The notes under the pieces: model-generated
The model's input: the letters and a program-made list of their open reading frames with translations, nothing else
Told to the model about the DNA's origin: nothing
The model's database searches: none
Assembly: GCF_002075285.3 (NCBI RefSeq)
Contig: NZ_CP021983.2
Coordinates: 3,840,001 to 3,872,000, forward strand
Origin: Halomicronema hongdechloris C2206
Lineage (GTDB): Bacteria > Cyanobacteriota > Cyanobacteriia > Phormidesmidales > Phormidesmidaceae
Direction of reading: 5' to 3'
DNA length: 32,000 bases
Program-made: the position numbers and the translations under genes
Shown here: piece by piece, positions 4,284 to 20,462 of the stretch
How positions within the stretch are numbered: position 1 is the stretch's first letter
How the letters are laid out: the number at the start of each line of letters is the position of its first letter

Positions 4284-5813
4284 TCATTCAGATTGACTGT
4301 TGCTGTATAACTGAGACTCGCTGATAAACTCCTGCAGCTCTTGAGGGTTTTCATCAGCGAAACGTCGAAATATAGCTGCTGCTCTGACCAGTTCAGTTGC
4401 TTCTTTTTGAGGATAATAACGGCGGAGGCCACTATGCCGTGCCAAAGTATAGGCTCTGGAACGATCCAAAGCAGCAGTCTTATAGTCAGGATCACCCGGC
4501 CTTAAGTCATTGATCGAACCTTCGTTATCGTCCACCTTGAAAAAGCCAAATTCACTGACATAAACTGCCTCTCGGCCTAACACTTGGAAGTCCAAATATA
4601 CTGTAGTATCTATTGCTCCGTTGAGTTGAAAGACTCCCTTTGAGTTGCCAGCTTCATTTATTAGAGATGTGATATTGGCAGAAGTATCAAGTTCTTCTGA
4701 AATGAGACTAGAATCGGTAATTCCTTGCACCTTAACTTTCAAATCGTCAAAATCTCCGTCATTTCCAATCAGTTGGTCTTCCCATTTCAGTAGTAGCCCG
4801 TCCTCCTGAGACTCCGACTTGATAGGAGAAAAATCATTGAGATTAGCCTTTGGCACACTAAATAAGACGTGCACTGGTTGATCTCCTTGATACCCCTCGG
4901 AAGGAGACATCACGGATTCTGCAGGAGCATCAACTACCAGGTAAAAAGCAATATACTCCCCAGATTCGAGGCTAATCCCTTCAAATCCCCAATATTCATC
5001 GATATGGTATCCAAATTGGTCCACATAGCCCCAATCTACCCAATCGCTCAGAACCGAACATTGATCGGTGTTGAATGCTTTCACGCTTTCTGGACTGCAA
5101 GCCTGCTCAATTTCTTCTATGTAGGCATACTCGGCACCTTCATAGTTCGTCCAATGGTATCGAGATAAAAGCCCTTCTGCTTGAGCTTTTCCGTCAGCTA
5201 GACGAGTGACAAAATCAGTGTCTATGTCGGTGTTAACGTAAGAACCACCGAACGTTTCGGCGGGATCAGGCTGAGAATCATGCCCAAGGCTAGCATTGAG
5301 TTCTTCCTTGAGCCAACTATCATCAAATGAATTCAGAAGGAGACTATCAAAGTCTAGGAATTCCAGAATCTCGGGAACTTTGCCTTGAGCTAATTCAGCA
5401 GGGGTAAATCCACCGGGCACAGACACTAATTCATCTTCAGGATTACTCGTTTCAGGTAGCCAGGCAGAGTATGCGCCTATCTGCCCAGTGAGTACCCACT
5501 GGGATAAAGAAATGGCCGTCTCGGGAGAAATATCTAGCTGATAGCAGATGTCTTCAAAGAGTAGGCAAACTCGCTGACCGGAATCTGACTGAATATCTAT
5601 CTGCAGGTCCAAATCTTTGACAGAAATAGCTTGTTCATCTGGTCCGAAAAAGTTGCTAGACCCTTGTAAAACTACTCCACCCCAGTCGTCAACCCTTGCA
5701 AAGACTTGACGTATTTTTGGCGTTGAGCCTGTGGCGATTGCGACCTCAGAGCAGATGCTTGAGAGCGCGAGACCGATAAGAAAGGCATTTTTGATTGGCT
5801 TCATTTGTTTCAC
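4284..5813 (-). CDS. Secreted protein with a DUF4114-like region
   Basis: N-terminal signal-peptide-like segment (KPIKNAFLIGLALSSICSEVAIA). LLLKWEDQLIGNDGDFDDLKVKV matches the remembered DUF4114 core (xEDxxxGGDxDFNDxV). Confidence 0.55.
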   Translation of the reverse strand: MKQMKPIKNAFLIGLALSSICSEVAIATGSTPKIRQVFARVDDWGGVVLQGSSNFFGPDEQAISVKDLDLQIDIQSDSGQRVCLLFEDICYQLDISPETAISLSQWVLTGQIGAYSAWLPETSNPEDELVSVPGGFTPAELAQGKVPEILEFLDFDSLLLNSFDDSWLKEELNASLGHDSQPDPAETFGGSYVNTDIDTDFVTRLADGKAQAEGLLSRYHWTNYEGAEYAYIEEIEQACSPESVKAFNTDQCSVLSDWVDWGYVDQFGYHIDEYWGFEGISLESGEYIAFYLVVDAPAESVMSPSEGYQGDQPVHVLFSVPKANLNDFSPIKSESQEDGLLLKWEDQLIGNDGDFDDLKVKVQGITDSSLISEELDTSANITSLINEAGNSKGVFQLNGAIDTTVYLDFQVLGREAVYVSEFGFFKVDDNEGSINDLRPGDPDYKTAALDRSRAYTLARHSGLRRYYPQKEATELVRAAAIFRRFADENPQELQEFISESQLYSNSQSE

Positions 5814-6142
5814 CTCTCATAATTGGAAGAGCTTCATCTGGGTAGTGTTTGTTCCATCGGTATTTGCATTCTGCTGATGGATAACAGGCATGAGCGTACA
5901 AATGCTGAGCTCCCATATGCTCAATCTGCGAAACCCTTTGCATCTCAAGCACTGTTGATAGCTCATTACCACTAGTAGGTACCGATTCAGTTTGGTTCAC
6001 AGAAATGGCAAAAAATCTGATGTGGCTTCATGAGTGCATCACTTCAAACCACCGACATTGAATGATATGTAGCTCGGGAGCTCCAGCAATCAAACTGTTG
6101 CAATAAAGGCTATTGACCCTACATCACTACTGGAGAACTAAA

Positions 6143-6304
6143 ATGGGTATGAAGCAGAACCTGTTCTCAAAACTATTCATCTGGCTCTTCCTCGAAATTT
6201 TGCTTTCAGCTCTCAACTTGGATGATCTGGCAGACTATGGCGAATTCCTTAACGTCTCTCGACACAACTTGGCCGTTGAAACCAGCGTTGTACGTATTTC
6301 TTAA
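6143..6304 (+). CDS. Small hypothetical protein (53 aa from the ATG at 6143) with one hydrophobic helix
   Basis: A GGAG at 6132-6135 lies 7 nt before the ATG. Sequence MGMKQNLFSKLFIWLFLEILLSALNLDDLADYGEF. No family recognised. Confidence 0.3.
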   Translation: MGMKQNLFSKLFIWLFLEILLSALNLDDLADYGEFLNVSRHNLAVETSVVRIS

Positions 6305-6495
6305 TAAGATTGGGCCAGGATGGTGAATAACATGTCCCGGCTTGCTTAGGGAAGAGGCTAATAATCGTGATATGGACGTTGTCAGTCAGATTGTTGCCAA
6401 AGTATTTGTAGCGTTTCTGAATTTCTTTGCTAAAGTTAGACGAACTCGAGCAACAGTGTGGTTAGGCATAGCCCCAGCCAGCAATCAGCGCCTCC

Positions 6496-9390
6496 ATGAA
6501 GCATGCATCTTCCATCCTCATCCGCAGCATTTTCACTTCATTGTTCCTGCTTGGGGACTTCACTGCAGATTTAGCGCTAGCCAACGAGCCGCCAGCTATC
6601 TTGGCCAGTCATCGAAGTCAGCTTCAAAGTCAGCTTCCCTCGCACCTGACGATGCGCCTGCCTGCTGATAGTTGGCTACAGGAGTTGCTCACCTCAGAAG
6701 AGGATTACTCTGTTCACATATTTCCTGCATCAGCAGAGTCAGGCCTCGCCATTGGACTGTTTACTTGCGATGACATTTCTCCAGACTGTCTAATTGCTAG
6801 CTTTTCTACCCTGGAAGTATCCTCTCCGACTGCTCAAGCAGCATTGCAACAACATCAGGCAGCTGCAGCTCCCATTACCCTTGCCCCTGAAGCGCGAGGG
6901 TATTTGTTGGATGGGTCGAAACTCAGCCCACAGGCTGAACTTTCTTCAGTTGTTTGGGTGCAGGATAACCAGCTTTACGCGGTGCGATTCCCTGCAGACG
7001 TTCGCCAAACGGGATTGTACCTGGCACACTCAATGGCGATTGCCCCACCCCTGTCAGGCATCAGTACTATTACAGAGACTGCGAACGCTCCCACCGAAGA
7101 ATCTGAAGTTACAACTAGAAATCAAATTATCGAGCTATCCTCCGGTGGATTGGCAGCCTTGGCGGAAGCATTAGCCCAACAGTTGCCAGCCGCTGTATCC
7201 ATGAGGTTACCTGAGCGAATGCTATCGCTAGAAACCACAGCAAATGATGAGGCCAACTATCAGCTCGAAGTAATTCCCACAACGACGTCAGATACTTTAA
7301 CAGCGAGTATATTTACCTGCCGAGCCACCACACCAGATTGCTTCCTGGGGCATTTTTCAGCCAGTGCGGGGACGTCGGCAGCAGCAGAGGACTTACATCG
7401 GCAGCATCAGGAGCAAGGAAATTCAGTTACGCTTAGCAGAGAAATTACAGCCTATGTTTTGGAGCTAGTTGAGGGAGATGCCTTTTCGCCCTTGGTGTCG
7501 GTGATGTGGCAGCAAGATAGGCAATTTTATAGGCTCCAGTTTCCGGTGCAAGCGCGGCAAAATATGCTGTTCACGGCACTGTCTATGATCAAAGGGCCGA
7601 TAGTGGTTTCGGCCCATTCAGAGCCTGTAGCTGTCACTGCTGATAATGGGCGCGGGGATGAGTCGTTGTCTTCCATTCCTGAGGAACCGGCCCCGCTACT
7701 GCAATTGCAGGAGGTAGAGACGGCGGCTATCAGTGATAGCACTGCCCAGGCATTACCTCCAGATTCTGTGTCTCCAGATGCTTCCGAGGAAGCAGTGCCT
7801 GCCCCCGCTTCAGAGGCAGAGCCATCATTACTCGAAAGGGCAGAGATTGAAATTCGTGGTGTTGAAGTAAAGGGCAGCACGATCTTTGACAAGATTGACT
7901 TCCAGCCTATTCTTGAGGAAGCGGGGATACATCCCAACTTACTGGAGAATGAAACTCAAACCGTGAATTTGCCGCAGTTGATTAATGTGGCTAACGGCAT
8001 TACACAACTCTATGTGGACCAGGGCTATATAACTTCTCAGGCGATTCCCCCAAATCGAGACAACTTTCCTGACGTTTCAGAGAATGGAATTGTCTATCTG
8101 CAGGTAATTGAGGGACAGTTGGGCGAGATTAACATTCAGGGCACAGAACACTTACAAGAAAGCTATGTCCGTAGTCGGCTGGAATTAGGAGTGACATCGC
8201 CTCTACGAATTGATCGCATTGAGGAACAACTGCGGTTGTTGCAGGTGGACCCCAATCTGTCTGCTGTTGAGGCAACGCTCAAACCGACAGGTACCCTTGG
8301 GTTGAGTAATCTGGAGGTGACGGTAGAGGAAGCCCCGACCTTTGTGGCAGGAATTTCAGTCGATAACTATTCGCCACCCAGGGTTGGTAGTGAGCGGACT
8401 GGAATTGACGTGGCGCTTCGGAACCTGGCTGGGTGGGGCGACTCGCTCTCAGGCTCCTATTTTCGATCCACGACGGGCGGAGCAGAGGTCTTTGATTTCC
8501 GATATACGGTGCCTTTAAACGCCATGAATGGAACCCTACAGTTTCGAGCTGCGCCGGAGCGCAATGAAGTGACCCTATCCGATTTCAGGGAGTTGGGGCT
8601 GCGGGGGGAGATTGAGCGCTACGGTGTGCAGTTACGGCAACCCGTGATTCGATCGCTCAATGAGGAGCTAGCGCTATCGTTAGGCTTTACGTTTCAGGAG
8701 GGGCAGACTTTTGTGTTTGACCAGGAGCCCGCTCCCTTTGGTATCGGCCCGGATGAAGATGGGGTGAGCCGGACCAGTGTCTTCACCTTTAGGCAAGAAT
8801 ACGTTAGCCGAGACAGTTTCGGAGCCTGGGCATTGCAGTCTCAGTTTAATTTTGGTACCGGATTATTTGAGGCCACGGCAAATCCCTCGTCGATTCCGGA
8901 TGGTCAATTCTTTAGCTGGTTGTTTCAGGCCCAGCGGCTGCAGCGTCTGAGTGACAAGCATTTGCTGGTGATTGGAGCCGATGTGCAGTTGACACCGAAT
9001 ATGCTGCTGCCGGCTCATCAGTTCACCATTGGCGGGGGGCAATTGGTGCGCGGCTTCCGGCAAAATGCTCGTTCTGGGGATAATGGCTTTCGTTTCTCCA
9101 TAGAAGATCGCATTACGGTGACGCGGTTGCCATCTGGTGTGCCGGAAGTCCAGCTAGCCCCGTTTGTCGATATGGGGATGGTGTGGAATACGGCAGGGAA
9201 TCCGAATATTTTGCCAGAGCAACGATTTCTGGCGGGTGTGGGCATTGGTGGCATTTGGGATTGGTTTTTGGGGATAGAGCGACTAAGTGTCCGGCTGGAC
9301 TACGCCTTGCCGCTAATTGATTTAGAGGATCGCGGTAACAACGCTCAAGATTCCGGCTTCTATTTTCGCGTGAATTATCGGACTGAATAG
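6496..9390 (+). CDS. ShlB/FhaC/HecB-family two-partner-secretion transporter (TpsB, Omp85 superfamily) with a long duplicated N-terminal extension
   Basis: Signal peptide present. POTRA-like segment EIRGVEVKGSTIF...LYVDQGYITSQAIPP...VYLQVIEGQLGEINIQG. The C-terminal barrel carries the conserved GGGQLVRGF motif and ends in F-rich beta strands (FYFRVNYRTE). Confidence 0.9.
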   Translation: MKHASSILIRSIFTSLFLLGDFTADLALANEPPAILASHRSQLQSQLPSHLTMRLPADSWLQELLTSEEDYSVHIFPASAESGLAIGLFTCDDISPDCLIASFSTLEVSSPTAQAALQQHQAAAAPITLAPEARGYLLDGSKLSPQAELSSVVWVQDNQLYAVRFPADVRQTGLYLAHSMAIAPPLSGISTITETANAPTEESEVTTRNQIIELSSGGLAALAEALAQQLPAAVSMRLPERMLSLETTANDEANYQLEVIPTTTSDTLTASIFTCRATTPDCFLGHFSASAGTSAAAEDLHRQHQEQGNSVTLSREITAYVLELVEGDAFSPLVSVMWQQDRQFYRLQFPVQARQNMLFTALSMIKGPIVVSAHSEPVAVTADNGRGDESLSSIPEEPAPLLQLQEVETAAISDSTAQALPPDSVSPDASEEAVPAPASEAEPSLLERAEIEIRGVEVKGSTIFDKIDFQPILEEAGIHPNLLENETQTVNLPQLINVANGITQLYVDQGYITSQAIPPNRDNFPDVSENGIVYLQVIEGQLGEINIQGTEHLQESYVRSRLELGVTSPLRIDRIEEQLRLLQVDPNLSAVEATLKPTGTLGLSNLEVTVEEAPTFVAGISVDNYSPPRVGSERTGIDVALRNLAGWGDSLSGSYFRSTTGGAEVFDFRYTVPLNAMNGTLQFRAAPERNEVTLSDFRELGLRGEIERYGVQLRQPVIRSLNEELALSLGFTFQEGQTFVFDQEPAPFGIGPDEDGVSRTSVFTFRQEYVSRDSFGAWALQSQFNFGTGLFEATANPSSIPDGQFFSWLFQAQRLQRLSDKHLLVIGADVQLTPNMLLPAHQFTIGGGQLVRGFRQNARSGDNGFRFSIEDRITVTRLPSGVPEVQLAPFVDMGMVWNTAGNPNILPEQRFLAGVGIGGIWDWFLGIERLSVRLDYALPLIDLEDRGNNAQDSGFYFRVNYRTE

Positions 9391-9425
9391 AACGGGCTGA
9401 ATTGCACAGTTAGCGACAGGATCTA

Positions 9426-9431
9426 AAGGAG
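9426..9431 (+). promoter_or_regulatory. Shine-Dalgarno-like AAGGAG, 7 nt upstream of the TpsA ATG
   Basis: Read directly. It supports the start at 9439 over the internal Met at 9484. Confidence 0.6.
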
Positions 9432-9438
9432 CAACGTC

Positions 9439-12400
9439 ATGGGTTACGCATCACCACAGACAGAGAACACTACTGGTTTGATAATGCAGCTGGGCCGACT
9501 AGGTATCCAGGCATTGTTGGTGGCGTTGCCGATGACTGGGCTATGGGTGGGGGGATTGCCTGGCTTTGCTCAATCCATTATTCCGGCAGCGGATGGGACA
9601 GCCACGATCGTGACGCAGGATGGGGAGCGCTACATCATTGATGGCGGCACCTTGTCAGGTGATGGCGCGAATCTGTTCCATAGCTTTCAGGAACTGGGGC
9701 TGTCAGCGAATGAGATTGCCACGTTTTTGTCTGACCCGACGATTCAAAATATTCTGAGCCGGGTTATCGGAGGTGATCCGTCGATTATTGATGGGCTGTT
9801 ACAGGTGTCGGGAGGTAACTCGAACCTGTTTTTGATGAATCCGGCGGGGATTGTATTTGGCCCAAATGCTCGGCTGGACTTGTCGGGGTCGTTTAGTGCG
9901 ACAACAGCAACAGGCATTGAGTTTGCTGAAGGCTGGTTTGATGCCATTGAGGCAGGTGACTTTACGACCCTGACGGGAAACCCTATCGCGTATCGGTTTG
10001 GGGTGGGGGAACCGGGGGCGATCGTCAATGCCGGAACGCTGGCGGTTGAGCCTGGGCAGGGAGTGTCGCTGGTGGGCGGCACGGTGATCAATACGGGGAC
10101 GATTGAAGCTCCGGGGGGACAAATCACGGTAACGGCGGTGCCAGGGACCAGTCGAGTGCGGTTGCAGCAGCCGGGATGGGTGGTGGCGCTGGAGGTGGAT
10201 GTGGCGCTGCTGGCAGAAAGTGGCGCGTCGGCCATTGCCCCATGGGATTTGCCGAGGCTGCTGACCGAGGGAGCACCGGGCATCGAGACGGGATTGGTGT
10301 TGGCGGCGGATGGCTCGGTGCAGTTGGCGGAGTCCGGGGTGATGGTGCCGAGTGGAGGGGCGACGAGCATTGTGTCGGGGCAATTAGATGCGGCGAATAG
10401 AGCGTCGGGACAGACCGGGGGTGAAATTGCGGTTTTGGGCGATCGGGTTGGCTTAGTCGGTGCTGAGGTAGATGCATCGGGCGATGCGGGTGGTGGTCGT
10501 GTGCTGGTGGGGGGTGAGTTTCAGGGCAACGGGATGTTGCCAAATGCAGAGCGGACGTATATAAGTGAGGATTCGAGCATTCAGGCTGATGGAGGGACAA
10601 CAGGTGATGGGGGCGAAGTGATCGTTTGGGCGGATGAGGTGACAAGATTTTATGGGGGGATTAGTGCCCAAGGTGGGAACGAATCGGGTAACGGTGGATT
10701 TGTCGAGGTATCAGGTGCAGAAACTCTGACGTTTCGAGGAGAAGTTAATACGAGTGCTCCAAACGGGGAAGCCGGGACGTTGCTACTAGACCCTGAAAAT
10801 ATTGTGATTGTCGATGGAGCGGGAACTGATGATGGTCAGATTATTGATGGCGAAATACTGGCTGGAGATGGTCCTAGTGATACCTTCACAATTTCAGAAA
10901 TTGCTTTAGAAAATTTAGGGTCAGATACCAATGTCATTTTAGAAGCAACTAATGATATTACTATTAACGATTTGACCGATGATGCTTTAGCGTTTTCGGA
11001 AGGCCCTGGTGGTTCAATAATTTTTAACGCCGGCAATGATTTTATAATGCTTGATATAGAAGGAGATAGCGTTTTTGCAGGAGGCATTTTAGGAGAAGGT
11101 GATCAAATCGTTGCCTTTGATCGCAACATTTCAATTTCTGCTGGTGGAGATGTAATTATTGGTACGATAAATACGCTTACTCCTTCAGCTTTTCCTTCAA
11201 CTAATGATGCTGGTTCTATCAATGTTAGTTCTGAAAATGGAAGTATTGCTGTAAATATATTAGACAGTCGGTCTCCTGATGGAAGCGGAGGTGAGATATC
11301 ACTTGATGCATTTGGTGACATTACTGTCAATAACGCAATATTTTCACTCGGAGTTTTTGATGGAGTTGGAGGAGACGTCACTATAACTAGCCGAGCTGGT
11401 CAAATAAGCATCCCCCGCCTTAATACCCGTGGAAGTGCATCTGCTGGAAATATATTTGTTTCTGCACTTGGTGATATTGCAATTGATGATACTGCTGCTG
11501 CACCAGCTAATGCTTCAGCAGATAATGTCGGTGGCAACGTCGAAATCTTCAGTGAAGAGGGAAATATATTCATCCCAGATGGTATTTCCTCAAGTTCCAG
11601 TAATGGCGATGCTGGCGATATATCTATTATTGGCCTTAATGGATTTATTAATATTGATACAGGAGAAATAAATTCAAGTTCTCTGAACGGTGAAGGCGGC
11701 AATATACTAATACAAGCTTTGGGAAATATTACAACTTCTGACGTCACTTCTCGAATCCCTGTCGAAGACAATAACGGTCTCCCAAATCTAGGCACTGGCA
11801 CTGCAGGTGATATCACAATCAGAAGTCTTGCAGGTTCGATTGACACAACTAATCAAACCAACTTTGCAGGCATTGATGCGCGATCTAACAGCGGGCAGGG
11901 AGGCAACATTATTCTCGAAGCTGCAGGGGATATCAGAACGGCTGATGTGGCTTCGTGGATTAGCATCACTAACAACGGCAGCGGCACAGCAGGCGACATT
12001 TTGATCAGGAGTTTGAATGGGGCTGTCGATACCACTGCTCAGGTCAATGATGGGGTCTTGGCTAACTCCAATAACGGCACCGCAGGCAGCTTAACCATTG
12101 AAGCGGCAGGCGATGTCCGAACAGGTGATATTGGCGCTTCCATTGCAGATACCAATAACGGTAGTGGCTTTGCAGGTACGGTGACCGTCAGAAGCGCAAA
12201 CGGATCAATCGACACGAGGGCCGGTAATGTCGCTGCTCGCAGTCAAAACGGCACTGCTGGCAGCGTCACCCTTGAAGCCGAGAATGGCAGCGTCTTCACG
12301 AGTGATATTGATGTTGATGGTTTAACTGGAGGTGACCTCAGAATCATTGCCGAAACCGCGATTACCACTCTGGAGCTCGATACGAGCGGCTCCACTGGCA

Positions 12401-14316
12401 GCGGCGGCAATGTCTTCCTAGATCCGTTAGAAGACGTAGAGGTCTCATTTATTGATGCTCAAGGGGGACTGGCAGGTGTTGGCGGCGAAGTTGATATCAC
12501 TACCGGGCGTTTCTTTCGCGCTACTGGCACCTTCATCGACCAAAATGGTATTGAAGCAAGCATTTCTAGTGCTGGAGGCCAAGGTGGCGGGCCGATCACC
12601 ATTCGTCATGGAGGTGGCTTACAGGGAACTTCCTTTGACGTTGGCGATGCCACTGTTAATGGCACTGCCGGAGCAATCACTTCCGCTGCTGATAACGTCA
12701 TTGCGCCCACTCAGTCTTTCCCCACGTCTTACACGCAGGGCAATATCCGCATCCTCACCCCTTCCCCCAACGTGGTTGAAACTCAAACCCAGCCTGCTAT
12801 CCCAGAGGTGACAGATCCTGAGTCTCCAGCCGCCAAACTGGTGGCGCAAATAGAGACAGTTCTCACCTCAGATGTTCAAACCTACTTTGGACGCACAGGC
12901 GAAGATACGCCGATCAAAACCCTCAGCGTGATCCAAAGTGAACTCAACCGGGTAGAGGCACAAACCGGTTCCGTAAAACCAGCGGTGATTTATGCCTTTT
13001 TTGTGAATTCTCAAATTGATACCGAGAGGCTTGCCGAAATTGTCAACAAGAATCCTCAACCTTCCGGGCAAGTGGAAGAATCGCCTGATATCCAATGGCG
13101 ATACTCTTCTGACCGACAAGGCACCGCTTACTCTACCATTAGCCCCTATGTCTCTCAAGCGGAAGAAGTCTCTGAAAAATTGGTGTTAATGGTCATCACT
13201 GCCGATGGTCCGCCAAAACTGTTCCCTACCGAGGTTACCTTTGAGCAAATTGATTCTGCTGTACAAAATCTCAATGCTCAACTGAGTCAGGATTTTGGCA
13301 GCGATCGCTGGGAACCCCATGCCCGCTCCATGCATAACTATTTGATTGAGCCCATCGAAACCATGCTTGAAGATCAGGGCATCAACAACTTACTCTTCGT
13401 CATGGACGCCAATCTCCGGCATCTTCCTTTAGCGGCTTTCCTCCCAGGTAATGATAATGATGATGCGATCAGCGATTTGCAAAGTGATGCAGAAATCGCC
13501 AGCAGACTCCGCTCAACTCCGTTGTCGCTGCTCAAGAGTGCTGATGGTCGCTACCTAATCGAAGATTACAGCGTCGGCTTAGTCCCTAGTATGAGTCTGA
13601 CCGATACTCGCTATCGAGATGTCAGCCAAGATCCCTTTCTGGCGATGGGAACCGATGATTTCTCTCAATCCGAAGATCGGCTCAGTGCTTTGAAGGGAGC
13701 TCGTACCGAAATTGAGTTCCTAGAAACCATCTGGCGTGGAGAAGTCGAAGTACCTGATCAGGCAGAGTTCACGATCGGCAACTTACAGTCCTTGTTGCAG
13801 CAGCAAGATTTTCGCATCGTTCACTTGGCAACCCATGCTCAGTTCAAAGACAGTGAAGCCCATAATTCGTACATTCACTTCGCGGGAACGGAGCGGCTGT
13901 TTCTAGATGAGTTGCCTACGACATTAGACTTGCATGACATTGAGCTTCTAACCCTGAGCGCCTGTGAAACAGCCCTCGGCGACAGAGAAGCTGAACTGGG
14001 ATTTGCTGGGCTAGCATATCAAGCCGGTGCCAAGTCAGCACTAGCTAGCCTAGTACAAGTTTCAGACGTGGGCACGGCAGCACTGATGGCTCAGTTTTAT
14101 ACCAACCTCAGTAATGCCCCCATCAAGGCTGAAGCCTTGCGAGAGGCCCAACTTGCTATGTTAAACAGGCGAGTCTATGTCCAAGAGGGGCACATCTATG
14201 GTGAGGGGTTAGAAGCGGGTTTTCCGCTTCAGGAACCTCTAACAGCCTCTAGCTATCAAAGCTTTGAGCATCCCTATTATTGGGCTTGGTTTACCGTAGT
14301 CGGCAGCCCCTGGTAG
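9439..14316 (+). CDS. Two-partner-secretion exoprotein (filamentous haemagglutinin N-terminal TPS domain + beta-helical repeats) with a C-terminal CHAT caspase-like peptidase domain
   Basis: Signal peptide present. TPS-domain motifs NLFHSFQELGL and NPAGIVFGPNA. GGFVEVSG...GTLLLDPENIVIV. Degenerate repeats of about 58-68 aa span roughly 11695-12320. CHAT dyad: VHLATHAQF (His codon 13834-13836) and LTLSACETA (Cys codon 13963-13965). Confidence 0.9.
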   Translation: MGYASPQTENTTGLIMQLGRLGIQALLVALPMTGLWVGGLPGFAQSIIPAADGTATIVTQDGERYIIDGGTLSGDGANLFHSFQELGLSANEIATFLSDPTIQNILSRVIGGDPSIIDGLLQVSGGNSNLFLMNPAGIVFGPNARLDLSGSFSATTATGIEFAEGWFDAIEAGDFTTLTGNPIAYRFGVGEPGAIVNAGTLAVEPGQGVSLVGGTVINTGTIEAPGGQITVTAVPGTSRVRLQQPGWVVALEVDVALLAESGASAIAPWDLPRLLTEGAPGIETGLVLAADGSVQLAESGVMVPSGGATSIVSGQLDAANRASGQTGGEIAVLGDRVGLVGAEVDASGDAGGGRVLVGGEFQGNGMLPNAERTYISEDSSIQADGGTTGDGGEVIVWADEVTRFYGGISAQGGNESGNGGFVEVSGAETLTFRGEVNTSAPNGEAGTLLLDPENIVIVDGAGTDDGQIIDGEILAGDGPSDTFTISEIALENLGSDTNVILEATNDITINDLTDDALAFSEGPGGSIIFNAGNDFIMLDIEGDSVFAGGILGEGDQIVAFDRNISISAGGDVIIGTINTLTPSAFPSTNDAGSINVSSENGSIAVNILDSRSPDGSGGEISLDAFGDITVNNAIFSLGVFDGVGGDVTITSRAGQISIPRLNTRGSASAGNIFVSALGDIAIDDTAAAPANASADNVGGNVEIFSEEGNIFIPDGISSSSSNGDAGDISIIGLNGFINIDTGEINSSSLNGEGGNILIQALGNITTSDVTSRIPVEDNNGLPNLGTGTAGDITIRSLAGSIDTTNQTNFAGIDARSNSGQGGNIILEAAGDIRTADVASWISITNNGSGTAGDILIRSLNGAVDTTAQVNDGVLANSNNGTAGSLTIEAAGDVRTGDIGASIADTNNGSGFAGTVTVRSANGSIDTRAGNVAARSQNGTAGSVTLEAENGSVFTSDIDVDGLTGGDLRIIAETAITTLELDTSGSTGSGGNVFLDPLEDVEVSFIDAQGGLAGVGGEVDITTGRFFRATGTFIDQNGIEASISSAGGQGGGPITIRHGGGLQGTSFDVGDATVNGTAGAITSAADNVIAPTQSFPTSYTQGNIRILTPSPNVVETQTQPAIPEVTDPESPAAKLVAQIETVLTSDVQTYFGRTGEDTPIKTLSVIQSELNRVEAQTGSVKPAVIYAFFVNSQIDTERLAEIVNKNPQPSGQVEESPDIQWRYSSDRQGTAYSTISPYVSQAEEVSEKLVLMVITADGPPKLFPTEVTFEQIDSAVQNLNAQLSQDFGSDRWEPHARSMHNYLIEPIETMLEDQGINNLLFVMDANLRHLPLAAFLPGNDNDDAISDLQSDAEIASRLRSTPLSLLKSADGRYLIEDYSVGLVPSMSLTDTRYRDVSQDPFLAMGTDDFSQSEDRLSALKGARTEIEFLETIWRGEVEVPDQAEFTIGNLQSLLQQQDFRIVHLATHAQFKDSEAHNSYIHFAGTERLFLDELPTTLDLHDIELLTLSACETALGDREAELGFAGLAYQAGAKSALASLVQVSDVGTAALMAQFYTNLSNAPIKAEALREAQLAMLNRRVYVQEGHIYGEGLEAGFPLQEPLTASSYQSFEHPYYWAWFTVVGSPW

Positions 14317-14350
14317 AGATGAACCGCTGTGCGAAAGCTCGCCTCTCCGT

Positions 14351-15103
14351 CTAGTTGCTTTCACACAGCTCGGCATAGATTTGGTTTGTGTAGGCATCTT
14401 TTTCAGCAGATTGGCTGAGGTTAAACAGCTCCTGTACGGCATCAGCAAAGAAGTAGGTTTCGCTGTCCGCTCCGGCTGCTGTAATACCACTACCCGGAGT
14501 GTAACTATGGCTAGAAAAGTAGTCTATTCTTTGCCAGGTCAGCGAGTCCCGGTCACTTGAAGCCGATCCACTAGATAAATCGTTCAATGCTGTTTGAACA
14601 TTCTGCCATTCAGCTTGGGGAAGAAGCTGGAACGGTACGGCAAATGGCCTGTCCCCACCTCCATAGATTTCAAAGTAGTATTCTTCTCCAGGCGACAAAT
14701 TTTCCTTGTCATAGGCTATAGAGTGCAGGGTTTGAGCATCTGCATCTTCTGGGATGGATACCGTGTCACTCCATCTAACGTCGTTGACAGTCTCTCCTCT
14801 CACCTGAACTCGCAGCTCGCCTTCGCCACCGAACCAAACAAATAAAGGCTGGTGATGCCAAATGTAGCCACCGTCAGGTGTGATTACACAGATAGGGCCT
14901 CGCGTACTTCCCCCGCGCGACCGTCTAAAAATCTTATCGATGATTGATTGGCTTTTCTCTTGTTGACCGTCAAAATTCAGCACCTGAGAAACTGGAGTGT
15001 TCCCGAATGCTGATTGACTAAAAACGCCTGCCAACATTGCTCCGGTCGCTGGTAATAAGACTGACAGCAATAGTCTTTTTGAATGAGTCCGTAGTAAACG
15101 CAT
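14351..15103 (-). CDS. DUF928-family secreted protein
   Basis: Signal peptide present. An RSRGGSTRGPIC motif followed by PLFVWF matches the remembered DUF928 pattern (R-GGGxRG-C then PTFFWY). Its ATG overlaps the stop of the upstream gene by 1 nt. Confidence 0.65.
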   Translation of the reverse strand: MRLLRTHSKRLLLSVLLPATGAMLAGVFSQSAFGNTPVSQVLNFDGQQEKSQSIIDKIFRRSRGGSTRGPICVITPDGGYIWHHQPLFVWFGGEGELRVQVRGETVNDVRWSDTVSIPEDADAQTLHSIAYDKENLSPGEEYYFEIYGGGDRPFAVPFQLLPQAEWQNVQTALNDLSSGSASSDRDSLTWQRIDYFSSHSYTPGSGITAAGADSETYFFADAVQELFNLSQSAEKDAYTNQIYAELCESN

Positions 15104-17610
15104 CAGAATATCCTCCGGGTAATAGGTCCTAAGTAGTTCAGTAAAACAGTCAAAGGGAATAGAACCGGCAGCAAAACGGGCACCGAAACATAAAGCTGTA
15201 GGCTGAGTAATCCATAGCCAGTGATCGCGAAGAAAGCAGTGCGAATCAATTTTTTGCGTTTCGCCCGTGGCTGTTTCTGTAGCGCTAAAACAGTGCCTTT
15301 GCCCAAAAAGATGGCTAATCCCGTCATTAAATAGTTGGGTACAACTCTAACCTGGTGTCGCTGCAAGAGTTGAGAGGTCATATAGGCATGGAATTCTGAG
15401 CTACTGAAAGACCTGGGCTGATATGCACAGCTTTGTCGTGTCCCCTGGTTTGAGTCCTGGGTATTAGGTCGATTAAGTGATAAACACCACCAATACTCTA
15501 TAGCCAATGGTGGCGAATAGTTATCTTCGGCATCGGCATAGTCACCAGAGCCAATGATGAAAACCTGATCAGAAGATTGCGCAGTTGTGTCAGCATCCGA
15601 TGAACTCTCTTCCAGTAAATTAGAGGCCAATGTTCTTTGATAAAAAAAACTAGGTGGTAGCGAAAAATCGATAATAGATTGCCAACCCAAAAAAGATTTA
15701 TTCTGATGTATGAAGCTTCTTGATTGTTCGTTTTCGGCCAGTACAGTATTGGTTAAGGCGATCACACTCTTACAAAAATCATTACCAACATTTTCAATCT
15801 CTTGATCGCCGACCGCCTGATCCACTTTTTGCCTGAAACTTGTTATATTTGCCGTCGCAGGACTGGCATTTAGACTGTGTGATAAGGCCATCAAATAGCC
15901 GAAAGGGCACAGCTCCTCTAAATCGCTATCGTCTGGGGTGTCAACATCCCATGTGTAGAAGTTAGCGTCACTTCTTAGACTGACTTCCAGTTGTTGTAGC
16001 TCATCGAATACCTCAAGGTTCCGGTCTGAACTTGTTGGTACGACGAACCAGCTACCCTGCTCTCGTGACACTTCTCTCATGGTGTCGAGCAGTTGAGAAG
16101 AACCTGCATCAGGATCATCTAATAAATATCCAATGCCAATCGTTTTCGGCTGATAAAGGGAGACTTCATCAACTAGCTCGGCGATAAAAGCTTGGGGCAT
16201 CGGTTCCGCTTCGGTAATACCAGCCATATCTAACGCCCGTTGATCTATCGCGATTAAATGGACGGGCGGTACAGCATCTTCAGCCATTACTGGAACTTGT
16301 TGGGTTATGTCTCGATAAACTGCCTGTAGTGCAACACGCACTTCAACTAGCACATCTTGAACAACGGGTACGGCACCTAACAGCAGCACCGCTCCCGCAG
16401 TGGTTAGCTCCCGCTTGGTGGGTAACCACTTCCTCATCTGCTGCCGCCAAACGTACGACTTGATGCGGTACGGCAGCACCCTTGGTGGGCTGAATAATGA
16501 CGGCACCAGATGAGCCGACGGAAACTTGATATTCTCTGCCGACCTTAGCACCTCGCAGGTCTGCATCATTGCTGTGTGGGCATCTTGATACTCTCGGAGC
16601 CGCTGACAAAACTGGGTCAGAAATTCCTGAGCTGCATCATCGTGAATCTTCTCCCGCATCACGATCGCTTGAATACCTGACCGAGTCAGCGACTGGGCGA
16701 TCGCCAATCCTGAACAGGAATTGAACACTGCTAGCCTTAGCCCCTGACGCTGGGCTGTTTCCAAATGCTCTCGAATGTCATTGACTGACAGACTGACCAT
16801 CGGCGTTAACTTAAACGTGCCACTGGTATTTTCCTGGTCACTGCTATGGCCAGTAAAGAAGAGAACGTCCCATCCGCGATCATCCGCGATCGCCTCAAAT
16901 ACCTTGCGAGTAATGACATGGGGCGCATCCTCTGGCAACCACTTGGCTTTTTTGACATCGGCAACCGGGCGCAAGCCTCGGATGATTTCCCAATCCCCAT
17001 CTACGTCTAGGTGATTATCCTCAGCCACAATGGCTAAAACTCTTGGCTTTTTGAGCGATTCCGGTGGCGGCTGTCCGGCTAATCCTTGAGGGTCATCCCT
17101 CGCTGTGCGAATCACCCGAATTGAGTTGGACGGCAATCCCTGGGGTACGAGCCTTCTGGCCCATGCTTCCCAAGGGAGTTGCTGCAAGCGGCTATCTCCA
17201 CAGGCCAGAAAAACATTCACACCCAACGGCATGGAGGACTCTTCCTCACTGGTTTGAGAAACCTCCAGTAAGGCCGTTTGCAACTGTCGCTCGATTGAGC
17301 GAGTATCCCCAGCACCCAGCCAATCTAGAAAAGTCGTGGTCAGTATATCCTCAGCATTCCTGACCGCCGCTGACGGATCGCCATTAGGACGTACCGAAAA
17401 GGTACCGCTACGAGTCACTGGCTGTTCCGATTGCAGATGATAGTATCTCAGGTACTGCCGCTGCCAACTCTCATAGTCCCGCTGCAGCCTGCCCAGAAAG
17501 GGTTGACTAGCAAACAGATCACGCTTTCCCTCATCCCAGACCAGGTAAAAAACGCAGGAGCCATCGTCCTGAGAGAGTACCTTCAAATCAAACGTTACTT
17601 GCCTCGCCAT
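15103..17610 (-). CDS. CHAT peptidase domain (N-terminal, cytoplasmic) fused to a CHASE2 extracytoplasmic sensor with 1+3 transmembrane helices
   Basis: CHAT dyad in DVLFFTGHSSD (His255) and LAVFNSCSGLA (Cys299). First TM helix around residues 401-417. CHASE2-like motifs VHLIAIDQRALDMAG, TIGIGYLLDD and VFIIGSGDYADAEDNYSPP. Three C-terminal TM helices follow, and the protein ends right after the last one. Confidence 0.8.
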   Translation of the reverse strand: MARQVTFDLKVLSQDDGSCVFYLVWDEGKRDLFASQPFLGRLQRDYESWQRQYLRYYHLQSEQPVTRSGTFSVRPNGDPSAAVRNAEDILTTTFLDWLGAGDTRSIERQLQTALLEVSQTSEEESSMPLGVNVFLACGDSRLQQLPWEAWARRLVPQGLPSNSIRVIRTARDDPQGLAGQPPPESLKKPRVLAIVAEDNHLDVDGDWEIIRGLRPVADVKKAKWLPEDAPHVITRKVFEAIADDRGWDVLFFTGHSSDQENTSGTFKLTPMVSLSVNDIREHLETAQRQGLRLAVFNSCSGLAIAQSLTRSGIQAIVMREKIHDDAAQEFLTQFCQRLREYQDAHTAMMQTCEVLRSAENIKFPSAHLVPSLFSPPRVLPYRIKSYVWRQQMRKWLPTKRELTTAGAVLLLGAVPVVQDVLVEVRVALQAVYRDITQQVPVMAEDAVPPVHLIAIDQRALDMAGITEAEPMPQAFIAELVDEVSLYQPKTIGIGYLLDDPDAGSSQLLDTMREVSREQGSWFVVPTSSDRNLEVFDELQQLEVSLRSDANFYTWDVDTPDDSDLEELCPFGYLMALSHSLNASPATANITSFRQKVDQAVGDQEIENVGNDFCKSVIALTNTVLAENEQSRSFIHQNKSFLGWQSIIDFSLPPSFFYQRTLASNLLEESSSDADTTAQSSDQVFIIGSGDYADAEDNYSPPLAIEYWWCLSLNRPNTQDSNQGTRQSCAYQPRSFSSSEFHAYMTSQLLQRHQVRVVPNYLMTGLAIFLGKGTVLALQKQPRAKRKKLIRTAFFAITGYGLLSLQLYVSVPVLLPVLFPLTVLLNYLGPITRRIF

Positions 17611-18944
17611 TATGACTCTCCCGCGTCATAGGTGAGCGGGGGTAAGGCAAACGCTGTTTCACCGGGAGCAATAATTTCCACGTTCAGGACTTCTCCGACT
17701 CGGGCATCTACAGAGCTGTACACCAGCACTTCCTCGAATTCCAGATCAACAGCCTCTAAGAGATCCATTTCCCGACTGATTTTTAACTGTAGCCCCGCTG
17801 GTAACAGGCGATCGCTTTGAGACCCCACAATGACCAGCAATGACCAGTCAATCGCAGCGTCTGAGGCTGTCTCTAATGCTACCGGAGACCGATAGGGCAG
17901 CAAACACAGACACAAATCAAGTTCTTCTAGTTCAACATTCCGATACAGGGGACGAATAACTTCGGGAATAAGCAATCCGTCTTCCCGTAATGTGGCGATT
18001 GCCCCTTCAAACACTTCTGATAATGGCTGCGATTTCATAGCAGAGGCAAATTGCAATTGACTTCCTGTTAAGAAACCGAGACTTTGAGCCACCTCATCCA
18101 GCCCCGACTCTAACCACTGGCCGACATCGATCACGCTTTGTCTGGCGGCAGCCACCGCAGTTTGAAGACCTTGGCTTTGGCGATCACTTTGGGCAGGCTG
18201 CTGCCAGCAATGAAATTCAGCCCGGAGTGCTGGTGATGTCAAAATAGCGGCAGCCTGCTCCCAGGTCAACTGTTGCCAGAGCGGATCGGTCATAGAAACG
18301 TCTGCCAAAACTTGCTGCAACTCAGGCACCGCCATAGTGGCAGAACTTGTGGCTAAATCTCTCTCAGGCAATGAGAGAGTTGCGATGTCAAGCTGCTCAG
18401 CATAAAACACTAAGCGACTGGGCTCCTGTTCAAAGAGAGTCAGGGGTACGCGATATACCCAGTCGTCATCCGCTTCCAGGTTCATCGATTGTCGATAGTC
18501 TTGAAAGCGATCGCAGCGCAGCACACCTCGAAAAATCAATTCCTCATGTTCTTCAATCACTTCTACGACTAGACAGAAGTGAGGGATAAACTCAGGGAGC
18601 TCCACCGCCGCTTGAGGAATCTTGACCACTCCATCGATAATGCTTTCCGTGGCAATCAGGCACGCCCTAAAGGGGCCAATGGCAAGGCCGCAAGTCCCAT
18701 TTAGCAAACCCGCATAGCCAGGTTCAAAAAGCGTACTCTGTTCAATGTCGACCGCTCGTGTTCTCAGACGGTTTTGCAGCGATCGCTGTAGACCCAAAAC
18801 CGCCAACCCTTGCAAGTAGAGATCCCACTGCAAATTCTCGGTTGGGGCTAATTGACTATTCTGGCTAGCCCGCTGAATGTCCTCAAGCTCCAAAAGAATC
18901 GTCTCAGGATTGAGAAGTGTAGTGTCGCTAGTGGTATCAAACAT
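17610..18944 (-). CDS. DUF1822-family protein
   Basis: 444 aa with no TM helix or signal peptide. The N-terminal WDLYLQGLAVLGLQRSL and central KIPQAAVELPEFIPHFCLVVEVIEEHEELIFRGVL match the remembered DUF1822 pattern. Its stop overlaps the downstream ATG by 1 nt. Confidence 0.7.
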   Translation of the reverse strand: MFDTTSDTTLLNPETILLELEDIQRASQNSQLAPTENLQWDLYLQGLAVLGLQRSLQNRLRTRAVDIEQSTLFEPGYAGLLNGTCGLAIGPFRACLIATESIIDGVVKIPQAAVELPEFIPHFCLVVEVIEEHEELIFRGVLRCDRFQDYRQSMNLEADDDWVYRVPLTLFEQEPSRLVFYAEQLDIATLSLPERDLATSSATMAVPELQQVLADVSMTDPLWQQLTWEQAAAILTSPALRAEFHCWQQPAQSDRQSQGLQTAVAAARQSVIDVGQWLESGLDEVAQSLGFLTGSQLQFASAMKSQPLSEVFEGAIATLREDGLLIPEVIRPLYRNVELEELDLCLCLLPYRSPVALETASDAAIDWSLLVIVGSQSDRLLPAGLQLKISREMDLLEAVDLEFEEVLVYSSVDARVGEVLNVEIIAPGETAFALPPLTYDAGES

Positions 18945-18968
18945 GGTGATTACTTTCCTTAAATATAT

Positions 18969-20462
18969 TTATGACTCTTGTAAGAAGCGGCGTAGTTCAA
19001 CTGCATAGAGGCTGTCAAACGAACGATCCTTATTGGGCTTTTGCAGTTCCTGGAGCGCCTCGTCAAAAACCTCTGCATCAACCAGCAGCTCCAACTGCTC
19101 CATCAGGTTGCTCAAATAGTTTGGTTGGGGGGGAATGGCCGTCAATCCCATTTCATTGGCACGAACCAAAATAATATCCAGCAACTTTTCGAGCGTGCGA
19201 AAACGGACCTGGTGAATCAGTTCCTTGAGGGCCAGCACCCGAGCTACCAAAGGCTGGTTAGGAAAACTAAGGCGTTCTTGGATCGCTCGTTGTGAGAGCC
19301 CCTCTTGATAAATCAGCCTCAGTCCAGGGATGAGCTTGGAGGCATGCGCTTTACGGCGGCTCTTGCGGATTTCAGTGAGGCGATCGTCGATGCCCTGCTG
19401 AATTCCATACTGCAGGGCGTAAAGCTGTTGTTCGCGAATGAACTGCAAAATGTCCTCGTATTCCAGCTTTTCAGGTTCATTGACGACTGTCGAAGCAATG
19501 TCTCTCCGCTCTGTCGGTAGCCCCGTTTCTGGATCAGGCAGTTCAATCGGCTCAGCATTAGGGCGGCCCTGCCGTATCCACGCATCAATTTCTTGCAGTT
19601 CTTGCGCTACTTGCCGAAGTTCTTCCAATAAAATTTTTGGAGACTGAATTGTGATGTCGAGTTCTCGCAATTGATCCAACATCTCTCCTAACTGAAAATT
19701 TGTCGGGTCTGGACACTTTTTGGCTCTTAAACTTTTGCCATCCCGCTCCCGTTGCTTGAGGCGATCGCGACGATACACAGCCTGAAAGACTTCGACTAAA
19801 TGGCGCGATCGTTGAGATAACCATTTGAGTTGAGCAGACCGCGCTCGATTCATCAGCGCCCAATTGCTTAGTCGCTGAAAGCCCACTTCACTAAGAACGG
19901 TCTTAAGCCGCTCGTGATAGCGCGTCACATAATAGGCCCAGTTCGATAGGCTTTTGCGACCAGGGCTTTGGTAGTTGTAACCACTCAGGACATCAGCACC
20001 AAAGAAGCGGTAAGGCTCTGACTGTGATTTGTCAGAACGGTTTAGTAAACAGTATTCCTCGTTGTCGAATAGCCAAAGGGTCAAGCCATCATCATCTAAG
20101 ACGGCGGATAAAAGCTTTTGGAAGGTGTCTTGTCTGTTGGCTGTTCCGGCAAAGGCGCTGGCCTGATCCTTGCAGGCTTGTAGAATTGAGGGCGAGATGT
20201 AGCACCGTAGGCATAGTCCAGCTCCGGCTCGACGCTCCCTGGACTGAGAGTCGTCGGCAAACAGACTAAACAACTGCACCTGAATGGATACATCCTCATC
20301 TCCACCATTGAGCAAGATCTCGTTTTGACCTGCTAAGAAGTCATCCCACACAGTTTTGGCACGGGGAGACGGCCAAGACTCATACCCCCGCCTGACGGTT
20401 CCAGGCAAGCTACCTGGAGACGGCAGACGATAAATCTTTTGATAGCGGAGTAAATCACCCAT
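18969..20462 (-). CDS. Large divergent sigma-70-like / HTH regulator (region-4-like C-terminal module)
   Basis: LIPGLRLIYQEGLSQRAIQERLSFPNQPLVARVLALKELIHQVR resembles sigma region 4 (LxYxEGLSxxEIAxxLGxSxxTVxxRxxRA). SLSNWAYYVTRYHERL is weakly region-2-like. A GAGG lies 7 nt before the ATG. It is the first gene of the minus-strand operon. Confidence 0.5.
   Translation of the reverse strand: MGDLLRYQKIYRLPSPGSLPGTVRRGYESWPSPRAKTVWDDFLAGQNEILLNGGDEDVSIQVQLFSLFADDSQSRERRAGAGLCLRCYISPSILQACKDQASAFAGTANRQDTFQKLLSAVLDDDGLTLWLFDNEEYCLLNRSDKSQSEPYRFFGADVLSGYNYQSPGRKSLSNWAYYVTRYHERLKTVLSEVGFQRLSNWALMNRARSAQLKWLSQRSRHLVEVFQAVYRRDRLKQRERDGKSLRAKKCPDPTNFQLGEMLDQLRELDITIQSPKILLEELRQVAQELQEIDAWIRQGRPNAEPIELPDPETGLPTERRDIASTVVNEPEKLEYEDILQFIREQQLYALQYGIQQGIDDRLTEIRKSRRKAHASKLIPGLRLIYQEGLSQRAIQERLSFPNQPLVARVLALKELIHQVRFRTLEKLLDIILVRANEMGLTAIPPQPNYLSNLMEQLELLVDAEVFDEALQELQKPNKDRSFDSLYAVELRRFLQES

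Follow-up and report, generated by a model that had tools for sequence, protein, structure and literature searches.

The genome of the cyanobacterium Halomicronema hongdechloris C2206 encodes, within the stretch of 32,000 nucleotides analysed here (contig NZ_CP021983.2, positions 3,840,001 to 3,872,000; termed the window in the following, with positions counted from its first letter), a large exoprotein of the pathway called two-partner secretion (TPS) that ends in a caspase-fold protease module of the CHAT type. We refer to this protein as TpsA-CHAT. The pairing of TPS and CHAT domains is itself common; for the constant caspase-fold module at the C-terminus of a TpsA protein, we found no functional study. 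The window protein falls into a subfamily in which the genes for the exoprotein and its transporter TpsB are accompanied by a convergent operon of four genes, one of which encodes a second caspase/CHAT protein that is predicted to reside in the membrane. We favour the view, at a probability of about 0.45, that the CHAT module is an extracytoplasmic processing protease on a surface filament, acting on the envelope of the producer and coupled to the signalling operon.

The tpsB and tpsA-CHAT genes (Table 1) follow each other on the same strand at a distance of 48 bp and, judged by their sequences, make up a type Vb (two-partner) secretion system. The product of the tpsA-CHAT reading frame is 100% identical to a Halomicronema hongdechloris entry (P0121) named 'CHAT domain-containing protein' and consists, in this order, of a Sec signal peptide, a TPS domain, glycine-rich repeats, a proline-rich linker and the CHAT module. 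The TPS domain is recognised by PF05860 (139.8 bits versus a Pfam cut-off of 33.5) as well as by TIGR01901 (adhes_NPXG; E 5.6e-22, 77.5 bits versus an NCBIfam cut-off of 29.1). PF12770 (CHAT) matches residues 1294-1623 with an E value of 1.7e-61 and 208.6 bits (cut-off 24) and spans profile positions 3-289 of 289. A preliminary description of the locus had seen in this protein a genuine TpsA with an intact CHAT dyad. These matches, the tpsB gene upstream and the conservation of the dyad described below bear this out, and the motifs NLFHSF, NPAGIVFG, VHLATHAQF and LSACETA on which it was built all recur exactly, positions included, in the open reading frame (ORF) 9439-14316. The region in between had been described as about 1200 residues of beta-helix repeats. 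Repeats are indeed present, the motif G-x(0-2)-[GAS]-G-x-h-x-h occurring 20 times between residues 324 and 1054 as compared to 1.2 +/- 1.0 times in 500 shuffles, but they extend over about 750 residues only. This stalk is free of cysteine, did not match any FHA-repeat family in a Pfam scan and is presumed to fold as a beta-solenoid or beta-helix. Positions 10001-11000 of the window, inside the stalk, feature a GC skew of +0.39 and a G+C content of 0.56, which is due to the density of glycine (GGN) codons and not to replication or a foreign origin.

The signal peptide of TpsA-CHAT ends with LLVALPMTGLWVGGLPGFA, and the mature protein is predicted to start with QSIIPAADGT. Relatives have in common a hydrophobic stretch and then the junction A-Q, followed behind the cleavage site by S/P-I-T/I-P-A-x-D-G-T. 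While an alternative translation start at Met16 (9484) is possible, the start chosen by NCBI (1586 aa, MPGFAQS...) removes the signal peptide and for this reason is probably placed too far downstream.

TpsA-CHAT is a member of a large family. A search with the full-length protein returned 3268 clusters at E<=1e-10, and among the best 120 of these 3268 relatives all except one, a protein on a 7.1-kb contig, contain both PF05860 and PF12770. The named sources of these 120 proteins are all cyanobacterial, their lengths range from about 1340 to 2800 aa, and their public labels read 'CHAT domain-containing protein' or 'filamentous hemagglutinin family protein'. The pairing of the two domains is thus already visible in public annotation and no peculiarity of the Halomicronema genome. 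The constancy of the cargo rests on the full-length search, which is biased towards two-domain proteins, because a search for homologues of the TPS domain alone yielded only fragments of <=500 aa, mostly partial gene calls. In a metagenome sample, reading frames are between 868 and 2627 aa long, yet their CHAT end stays constant. Some relatives contain in addition lectin-like LamG domains. It was also considered whether the CHAT module is usually free-standing, as the 350-700-aa 'CHAT domain-containing proteins' of about 40% identity seemed to indicate. This was rejected since many of them result from partial gene calls or have their start within the linker or the stalk; genuine short CHAT forms bearing a signal peptide nonetheless exist.

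Two unusual domain combinations were noted among the relatives. In about one tenth of the best relatives (P0128, P0129, P0144, P0155, P0182, P0199, P0206, P0225, P0232, P0237 and P0238) a GT2 glycosyltransferase domain of about 250 aa precedes a Sec-like signal, behind which come TPS and CHAT, with ASLFMAAFPLAAAIGIKSVSAQ and then QIIP at the junction. One possible reading is a fusion that puts a cytoplasmic glycosyltransferase before a cleavable signal, reminiscent of TpsA glycosylation of the HMW1C type; another is read-through gene calls. P0003 (640 aa) consists of a signal peptide and two POTRA domains fused to a TpsA-type CHAT module in which the cysteine motif is replaced (LSSNKT), and by its sequence looks like a recombinant or decayed TpsB-CHAT chimera.

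The start of the CHAT module near residue 1133 was set from stand-alone homologues; the Pfam match begins later. The dyad pointed out in the preliminary description, His1466 and Cys1509, is conserved in homologues far beyond chance: when the last 450 residues of the query are aligned with those of 119 relatives, each of the two residues is kept in 119 of the 120 sequences. The motifs around them, HLATHA and LSACxT, are nearly invariant in the same alignment, and an invariant G-x-P-W closes the proteins. Cys1509 is the sole cysteine among the 1625 residues of TpsA-CHAT. Exactly one cysteine after the signal peptide is found in 58 of 106 relatives and exactly one in 81 of 98 TpsA-type CHAT modules, and the cysteine content is 0.12% versus about 1% in neighbouring cytoplasmic proteins. 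A single cysteine would fit transit of an oxidising periplasm with the nucleophile retained.

An AlphaFold2 (AF2) model of residues 1201-1625 (pLDDT 82.7, pTM 0.83) was compared with solved structures. The best Foldseek match is the TPR-CHAT protein Csx29 of Craspase (8eex_B; E 1.2e-11, about 390 aligned columns), separase is matched at E values of about 1e-6 to 1e-7, the two over about 380-400 aligned columns, and a probability of 1.00 was returned for Csx29, separase, SAVED-CHAT, DdvA, gingipain RgpB (4ief/1cvr), CED-3 and caspase-9. Only the comparison of folds was successful here, as a sequence-profile search with the CHAT module gave no relevant PDB match. Csx29 and separase are cytoplasmic proteins under the control of RNA-guided Cas7-11 and securin, respectively, unlike the exported module studied here, and share only 12-16% sequence identity with it. 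Since the dyad is kept, the model is confident and the fold matches CHAT and caspase proteases, we consider the module to be a bona fide clan-CD protease that is probably active. When the CHAT module, TpsB and the four proteins of the operon were scanned with PADLOC, nothing emerged beyond a weak match of CHAT to BovA (E 1.5e-4), so that the locus is not a catalogued defence system.

Downstream of tpsA-CHAT, four genes form an operon on the minus strand, p497-DUF1822-p835-p250, with overlaps of 1 nt at 15103 and 17610. The last of them, p250, is convergent with tpsA-CHAT, the two stop codons being separated by a gap of 34 bp. The preliminary description had assigned this gene to DUF928, which holds true by remote homology and not by a direct match: p250 itself did not match any Pfam family even at E<=10, yet it has 111 homologues, and 19 of 61 aligned sequences (p250 and 60 phmmer homologues) match PF06051 (best E 1.6e-7). 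The AF2 model of p250 (pLDDT 81.7) features an immunoglobulin (Ig)-like beta-sandwich and a helical C-terminus; Foldseek returned generic Ig-like sandwiches only, with no inhibitor-like or enzyme-like assignment for this model. The p835 protein is predicted to combine a cytoplasmic part, made up of an EACC2-like region and the caspase/CHAT domain, with a transmembrane segment, a periplasmic CHASE2 domain and a C-terminal transmembrane region, hydrophobic segments being located at residues 404-422 and 806-824. The label EACC2 follows the description of this architecture in the main text of PMC8195603 and not the profile of its authors. For p497, no Pfam family and no NCBIfam sigma factor family gave a match. 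With a profile built from 12 orthologues, matches were obtained to 8jzt_A, the sigma-4 domain of SigF, and to 7bhy_A, the helix-turn-helix (HTH) domain of DeoR (E 4.6e-4), so that of a sigma factor only a region-4-like HTH is detected. The gene at the corresponding position is termed a sigma factor of the extracytoplasmic function (ECF) type in the main text of PMC8195603. A scan of positions 5700-21000 for promoters and terminators gave counts at or below shuffled expectation, with nothing in the convergent gap of 34 bp, and was not used.

The segment 15103-20462 closely resembles the EACC2-caspase systems (Kaur, Burroughs, Iyer, Aravind 2021, PMC8195603) as they are described in the main text of that study: a constant N-terminal module plus caspase is followed by a variable C-terminus, here CHASE2, and accompanied by DUF1822 and a sigma-type gene. 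TPS exoproteins, DUF928 and exported CHAT proteases are, however, not mentioned as neighbours in this main text. With respect to it, the companionship of the EACC2-caspase-CHASE2 operon with exported CHAT proteins and the six-gene block are added by our analysis.

Far from being irrelevant, as the preliminary description had treated it, the convergent gene was the first seen of a conserved four-gene operon that is syntenic with this TpsA-CHAT subfamily. The layout of the window, i.e. genes for TpsB, TpsA-CHAT, a convergent protein of about 250 aa, a CHAT+CHASE2 protein of about 830 aa, DUF1822 and a protein of about 540 aa, recurs in Adonisia turfae (L001), on a JGI metagenome contig (L004) and in strain FACHB-472 (L005). 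L005 lacks TpsB, and the L004 contig stops inside the DUF1822 gene, leaving the last gene beyond its end. Pairwise identities amount to only 25-27% for p250, 33-56% for p835, 31% for DUF1822 and 24-31% for p497. TpsB from the window is 60% identical to its L004 and 49% identical to its L001 counterpart. In the window protein, the POTRA domains and the Omp85/ShlB barrel reside at about residues 450-960. They are preceded by an N-terminal extension without Pfam match (residues 1-440, positions 6496-7815) in which a unit of about 180 aa is repeated twice, with closely spaced cysteine pairs in both copies (FTCDDISPDC and FTCRATTPDC); this extension is present in TpsB from L004 (965 aa) and absent from that of L001 (606 aa). 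A TrwC-type relaxase is encoded a few kb upstream of tpsB in L001 (4806-7922) and L004 (498-3914), and none was seen in the window. The six-gene block may thus be located on a mobile element in some genomes.

For a broader view, one genome per species was scanned with the p835 alignment, and the 80 loci thus obtained were annotated with hidden Markov models (HMMs) built from the proteins described here. The full four-gene operon is present at 46 of the 80 loci. TPS proteins and/or an additional CHAT reading frame occur within 10 kb at 31 of these 46 and at 4 of the 34 loci without the full operon (Fisher p = 8e-7). The companions of the operon come in three forms. True TpsA-CHAT proteins are encoded at L007 and L017-L019 and, cut by contig ends, at L011, L012 and L026. 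The same CHAT module is also found beside the same operon in proteins devoid of a TPS domain, namely in proteins of about 460 aa and in TPR-CHAT proteins of 900-1150 aa, the latter in Nostocales often after divergent TPS proteins that lack CHAT. These non-TPS companions all start with Sec signal peptides and their CHAT modules, too, are of the single-cysteine type. At 12 loci the DUF928-like gene abuts a TpsA-type CHAT gene, usually 3' end to 3' end. This arrangement is repeated just upstream of the operon at L017 (4823-6981) and L022 (4449-6638), where a second DUF928-like paralogue is convergent with a short CHAT gene encoding a Sec signal. Furthermore, one to three divergent TPS proteins that lack CHAT (TPS score 110-130 bits) are encoded in tandem downstream of the DUF928-like gene at L033, L037, L040, L049, L054, L059, L060 and L069 (Nostocales and others), and in some of these loci they are followed by a TPR-CHAT protein of about 900 aa with signal peptide. 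Such loci look like a 'split' counterpart of the fused TpsA-CHAT.

A neighbour-joining tree was computed from 94 CHAT modules. Full-length proteins encoded next to the operon (window, L001, L004, L005, L007, L011, L012, L017-L019 and L159) cluster near its base together with only two non-adjacent members, and the operon-adjacent short CHAT forms make up a second small clade. On the strength of this grouping, the window protein is placed by sequence in an old and separate subfamily, whose genes move together with tpsB and the operon as a block of six, while the bulk of the family consists of 'orphans'.

Table 1. Features of the tpsBA-CHAT locus and the convergent operon in the window of H. hongdechloris C2206.
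Feature	Position	Strand	Remarks
TpsB outer-membrane transporter, 964 aa	6496..9390	+	ShlB PF03865 E 7.3e-27, 95.1 bits; Omp85 E 1.5e-12; POTRA_2 E 2e-9, 37.6 bits
TpsA-CHAT exoprotein ORF	9439..14316	+	uninterrupted, 1625 aa
Predicted Sec signal peptide, residues 1-44	9439..9570	+	cleavage between PGFA and QSIIP, judged by eye
TPS secretion domain, residues 55-246	9601..10176	+	PF05860 E 1.9e-40; motifs NLFHSF, NPAGIVFG
Repeat stalk, residues ~324-1062	10408..12624	+	Gly/Asn/Asp/Ser/Thr/Ile-rich, ~30 aa per unit, ~750 aa
Pro-rich linker TPSPNVVETQTQPAIPEVTDPESPAA, residues 1107-1132	12757..12834	+	read from sequence
CHAT module, residues ~1133-1625 (~490 aa)	12835..14313	+	N-terminal lobe, then C-terminal lobe with dyad
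Catalytic His1466 (HLATHA)	13834..13836	+	codon CAT; kept 119/120
Catalytic Cys1509 (LSACET)	13963..13965	+	codon TGT; kept 119/120
p250, secreted DUF928-like, 250 aa	14351..15103	-	signal peptide, conserved Cys71/Cys246
p835, caspase/CHAT + CHASE2 membrane protein	15103..17610	-	CHAT E 5e-10, CHASE2 E 1.2e-8 (Pfam)
p835 catalytic residues	His255 16846-16848; Cys299 16714-16716	-	GHS, NSCSG invariant in 4 orthologues
DUF1822 protein, 444 aa	17610..18944	-	PF08852 E 2.9e-27, 96.1 bits; stop overlaps p835 start by 1 nt
p497, first operon gene	18969..20462	-	sigma-70 region-4-like HTH near residues 375-420

How could the exported protease and the operon work together? In the reading we favour, TpsB would thread the stalk to the cell surface from the N- to the C-terminus. 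As TPS secretion proceeds in this direction, the CHAT module would emerge last, and it would not be a toxin that is injected into other cells. Most likely, it would stay at or under the outer membrane and anchor the filament, for which two precedents exist: the C-terminal prodomain of FhaB is kept in the periplasm and then removed, and the TpsA adhesin CdrA stays attached to the surface through its C-terminal tail in the periplasm until LapG, a periplasmic cysteine protease under the control of an inner-membrane sensor, releases it (PMC5422565). The order of export, these precedents, the CHAT forms with Sec signal only and the periplasmic location of the CHAT domain in DdvA render periplasmic retention, by analogy, at least as likely as surface display, and they are the reason for our preference for a filament-tethered protease. 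On a cue, CHAT may then cut its own linker, leading to release or maturation of the filament, and/or cleave periplasmic neighbours such as the DUF928 protein and the CHASE2 domain of p835. Through such cleavage, the sigma-like regulator and the caspase domain of p835 in the cytoplasm would be informed of the state of the filament. Control may also run the other way, from the operon to the expression of tpsBA, making the CHAT filament a regulated output.

A bolder version of this idea, which we hold to be improbable, is that the six genes at 6496-20462 constitute a trans-envelope proteolytic relay in which the inner membrane has caspase-fold proteases on either side. In such a relay the TpsA stalk would report contact or damage to the periplasm-side CHAT module. 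Its cleavage of either the DUF928-like protein or the ectodomain (CHASE2) of p835 would activate the caspase domain that p835 has in the cytoplasm, and this domain would process DUF1822 and thereby free the sigma-like p497. In other genomes, a Sec-exported stand-alone CHAT or TPR-CHAT protein might serve as the initiator.

Several observations weigh against a filament-tethered protease that is coupled to the operon. About one third of the full operons have neither a TPS nor a CHAT neighbour within 10 kb, parts of the operon are found near only about 4 of 80 metagenomic loci retrieved via CHAT, and tpsB is within range of only 5 of the 21 complete TpsA-CHAT genes with flanks. As most TpsA-CHAT genes have no operon nearby, the coupling is limited to one subfamily. 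Synteny could reflect co-regulation or joint mobility alone. The locus surveys were run with home-made HMMs on stop-to-stop ORFs, and the neighbour-joining tree is crude and carries no support values. The single cysteine is uninformative with regard to periplasm versus surface because all exported CHAT modules have it, and final location, substrate and activity of the CHAT module are inferred from sequence, models and analogy.

Other explanations have to be considered alongside. It is possible, if rather unlikely, that the whole passenger including CHAT crosses the outer membrane, in line with the surface-displayed or released protease of the preliminary description, and that the protease folds outside and acts on the sheath, the surface layer (S-layer) or exopolysaccharide-associated proteins of its own cell, or else on neighbours, grazers or phages. 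TPS is able to export whole enzymes, e.g. the protease LepA and HxuA (PMC5422565); the entire protein is depleted of cysteine, as expected for a chain kept unfolded in the periplasm; caspase-fold proteases that work outside the cell exist, gingipain RgpB from the list of structural matches being one; and the LamG domains of some relatives suggest external binding. On the other hand, the same CHAT module occurs in proteins that have a Sec signal only and no signal for export across the outer membrane, the nearest solved extracytoplasmic CHAT protein, DdvA, is periplasmic, and a protease with a free thiol would, by reasoning only, be prone to oxidation outside an oxygen-evolving cell. A report from an exoproteome was not found in our literature search. 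The C-terminal position of CHAT behind a proline-rich linker, the FhaB precedent, the lack of an adjoining operon in most family members and the autoproteolysis in trans proposed for the CHAT domain of DdvA may also be read to mean that CHAT serves in cis only, as an intramolecular chaperone or self-cleaving prodomain of the FhaB kind that is removed and degraded once the stalk is secreted, the operon being merely co-located or co-regulated. Stand-alone exported copies, however, have no stalk to process, and the synteny with the DUF928 gene and the operon is tight and ancient in this subfamily, which makes such a role distinctly improbable.

Delivery of CHAT into neighbouring cells to kill them, in the manner of contact-dependent growth inhibition (CDI), appears very improbable, even though TPS delivery of C-terminal toxins is established for CdiA. 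Caspase-like peptidases are said to have been listed by Zhang and colleagues in 2012 as toxin domains in polymorphic toxin systems. Immunity would then have to be encoded elsewhere or be provided by the DUF928-like protein, and p250 does evolve fast (25-27% identity between orthologues), like immunity proteins. In CdiA/CdiB/CdiI the pathway likewise delivers a C-terminal functional domain; here, in contrast, the cargo is constant (119 of the best 120 relatives), orthologues are about 39-46% identical over the whole length of the chain without a drop at a toxin boundary, a Pfam scan of TpsA-CHAT found no match to PT-VENN/pretoxin or FHA-1/FHA-2 families, and with about 490 aa the module is far larger than a typical CdiA-CT. 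The gene after tpsA is convergent, encodes a secreted protein and is part of a separate operon, so no co-oriented immunity gene follows. Moreover, p250 is tied to p835 and not to the TpsA: operons that have no TpsA-CHAT contain it nonetheless, and most TpsA-CHAT loci lack it. The statement in the preliminary description that TpsA-CHAT is not a classical CDI toxin is thus upheld. Least credible of all is a non-catalytic scaffold in which the CHAT fold only binds or anchors. CHAT proteases rest in inactive conformations and dyad mutants of DdvA are without phenotype in unperturbed cells, but a scaffold would not explain why histidine and cysteine are kept in 119 of 120 sequences within nearly invariant HLATHA and LSACxT motifs, nor why this cysteine is the only one tolerated in the protein.

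Known systems share individual features with the locus. FhaB/FhaC from Bordetella likewise combine a Sec signal, an N-terminal TPS domain with NPxG, a TpsB of the POTRA-Omp85 kind encoded next door, a long stalk of repeats and a C-terminal region that differs from this stalk. Unlike FhaB, TpsA-CHAT is devoid of Pfam FHA repeats and its C-terminus is a protease fold with a dyad instead of a protease substrate; the Bordetella maturation protease SphB1 is encoded elsewhere. The closest functional analogy to the mechanism proposed here is provided by CdrA/CdrB and LapG/LapD from Pseudomonas aeruginosa. There, LapG is a separate and unrelated cysteine protease under the control of cyclic di-GMP via LapD, whereas here the protease would be fused to the adhesin, and a CHASE2-caspase protein that has a sigma-like partner is the candidate for the sensor. 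DdvA from Myxococcus xanthus is a transmembrane anti-sigma factor whose periplasmic TPR-CHAT part has been solved (PDB 8rot/8rw5) and proposed to be a self-cleaving site-1 protease (PMC11506125). It resembles TpsA-CHAT in its extracytoplasmic CHAT domain with intact His-Cys dyad, the genetic tie to a sigma-type regulator and the structural match, but it resides in the inner membrane, contains TPRs and an anti-sigma domain of the zinc type, and has no TPS domain, stalk or TpsB.

The preliminary description had further considered an extracellular, TPS-delivered caspase-like protease to be uncharacterised. This agrees with our literature search in so far as a study of a TPS-linked CHAT protein was not found; it does not apply to extracellular caspase-fold proteases as such, of which gingipain RgpB is already an example. 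Gingipain is exported by type IX secretion and belongs to family C25, and the TPS-exported protease LepA is not a CHAT protein. Literature on CHAT in connection with TPS, filamentous hemagglutinin, DUF928 or the cyanobacterial exoproteome yielded no functional study, subscription-only papers being outside the scope of the search. CHAT and a TPS-type annotation are mentioned jointly only in a Trichodesmium preprint, where both appear in a list of enriched annotations; a paper on the Anabaena exoproteome mentions neither a CHAT nor a TPS-type protein, and the main TPS review is silent on cyanobacteria and on caspase-like cargo (PMC5422565).

Further genes in the surroundings deserve mention. A serralysin-like M10 metalloprotease with RTX repeats (20677-22863, plus strand) and a DUF4114 protein (4284-5813, minus strand), both exported, are encoded in the window, and in strain FACHB-472 (L005) genes for DUF4114/PEP-CTERM and CAP+RTX proteins adjoin the same operon, which hints at a wider neighbourhood of secreted proteins around the block. 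At 1603-4164 (plus strand), the window contains a gene for an NB-ARC/STAND NTPase with DUF7779 and many TPR_12/TPR_10 repeats, of a type typical of conflict systems in multicellular bacteria.

Two-partner secretion is known almost wholly from proteobacterial adhesins, cytolysins and CDI toxins. The TpsA-CHAT family with its thousands of members joins this pathway to a constant caspase-fold protease, and a whole functional class of TpsA proteins is thus uncharacterised. CHAT proteases have recently been shown to be regulated switches in immunity (Craspase, SAVED-CHAT, DdvA), and with an exported CHAT protease tethered to a filament at the surface, signalling of the caspase type would reach the bacterial envelope as well. 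One subfamily shows a firm genetic linkage of the CHAT filament with a membrane sensor-caspase and a sigma-like regulator, and this circuit of six genes and two catalytic cysteines offers a concrete and testable entry point. If CHAT only matures its own stalk, the finding would be a modest addition to TPS biology. It bears on surface sensing by filamentous cyanobacteria and on their much-debated 'programmed cell death' machinery, and the relay, if true, would be a bacterial 'initiator/executioner' caspase cascade for surface signalling, such as the sensing of kin, phages or grazers, in multicellular cyanobacteria.

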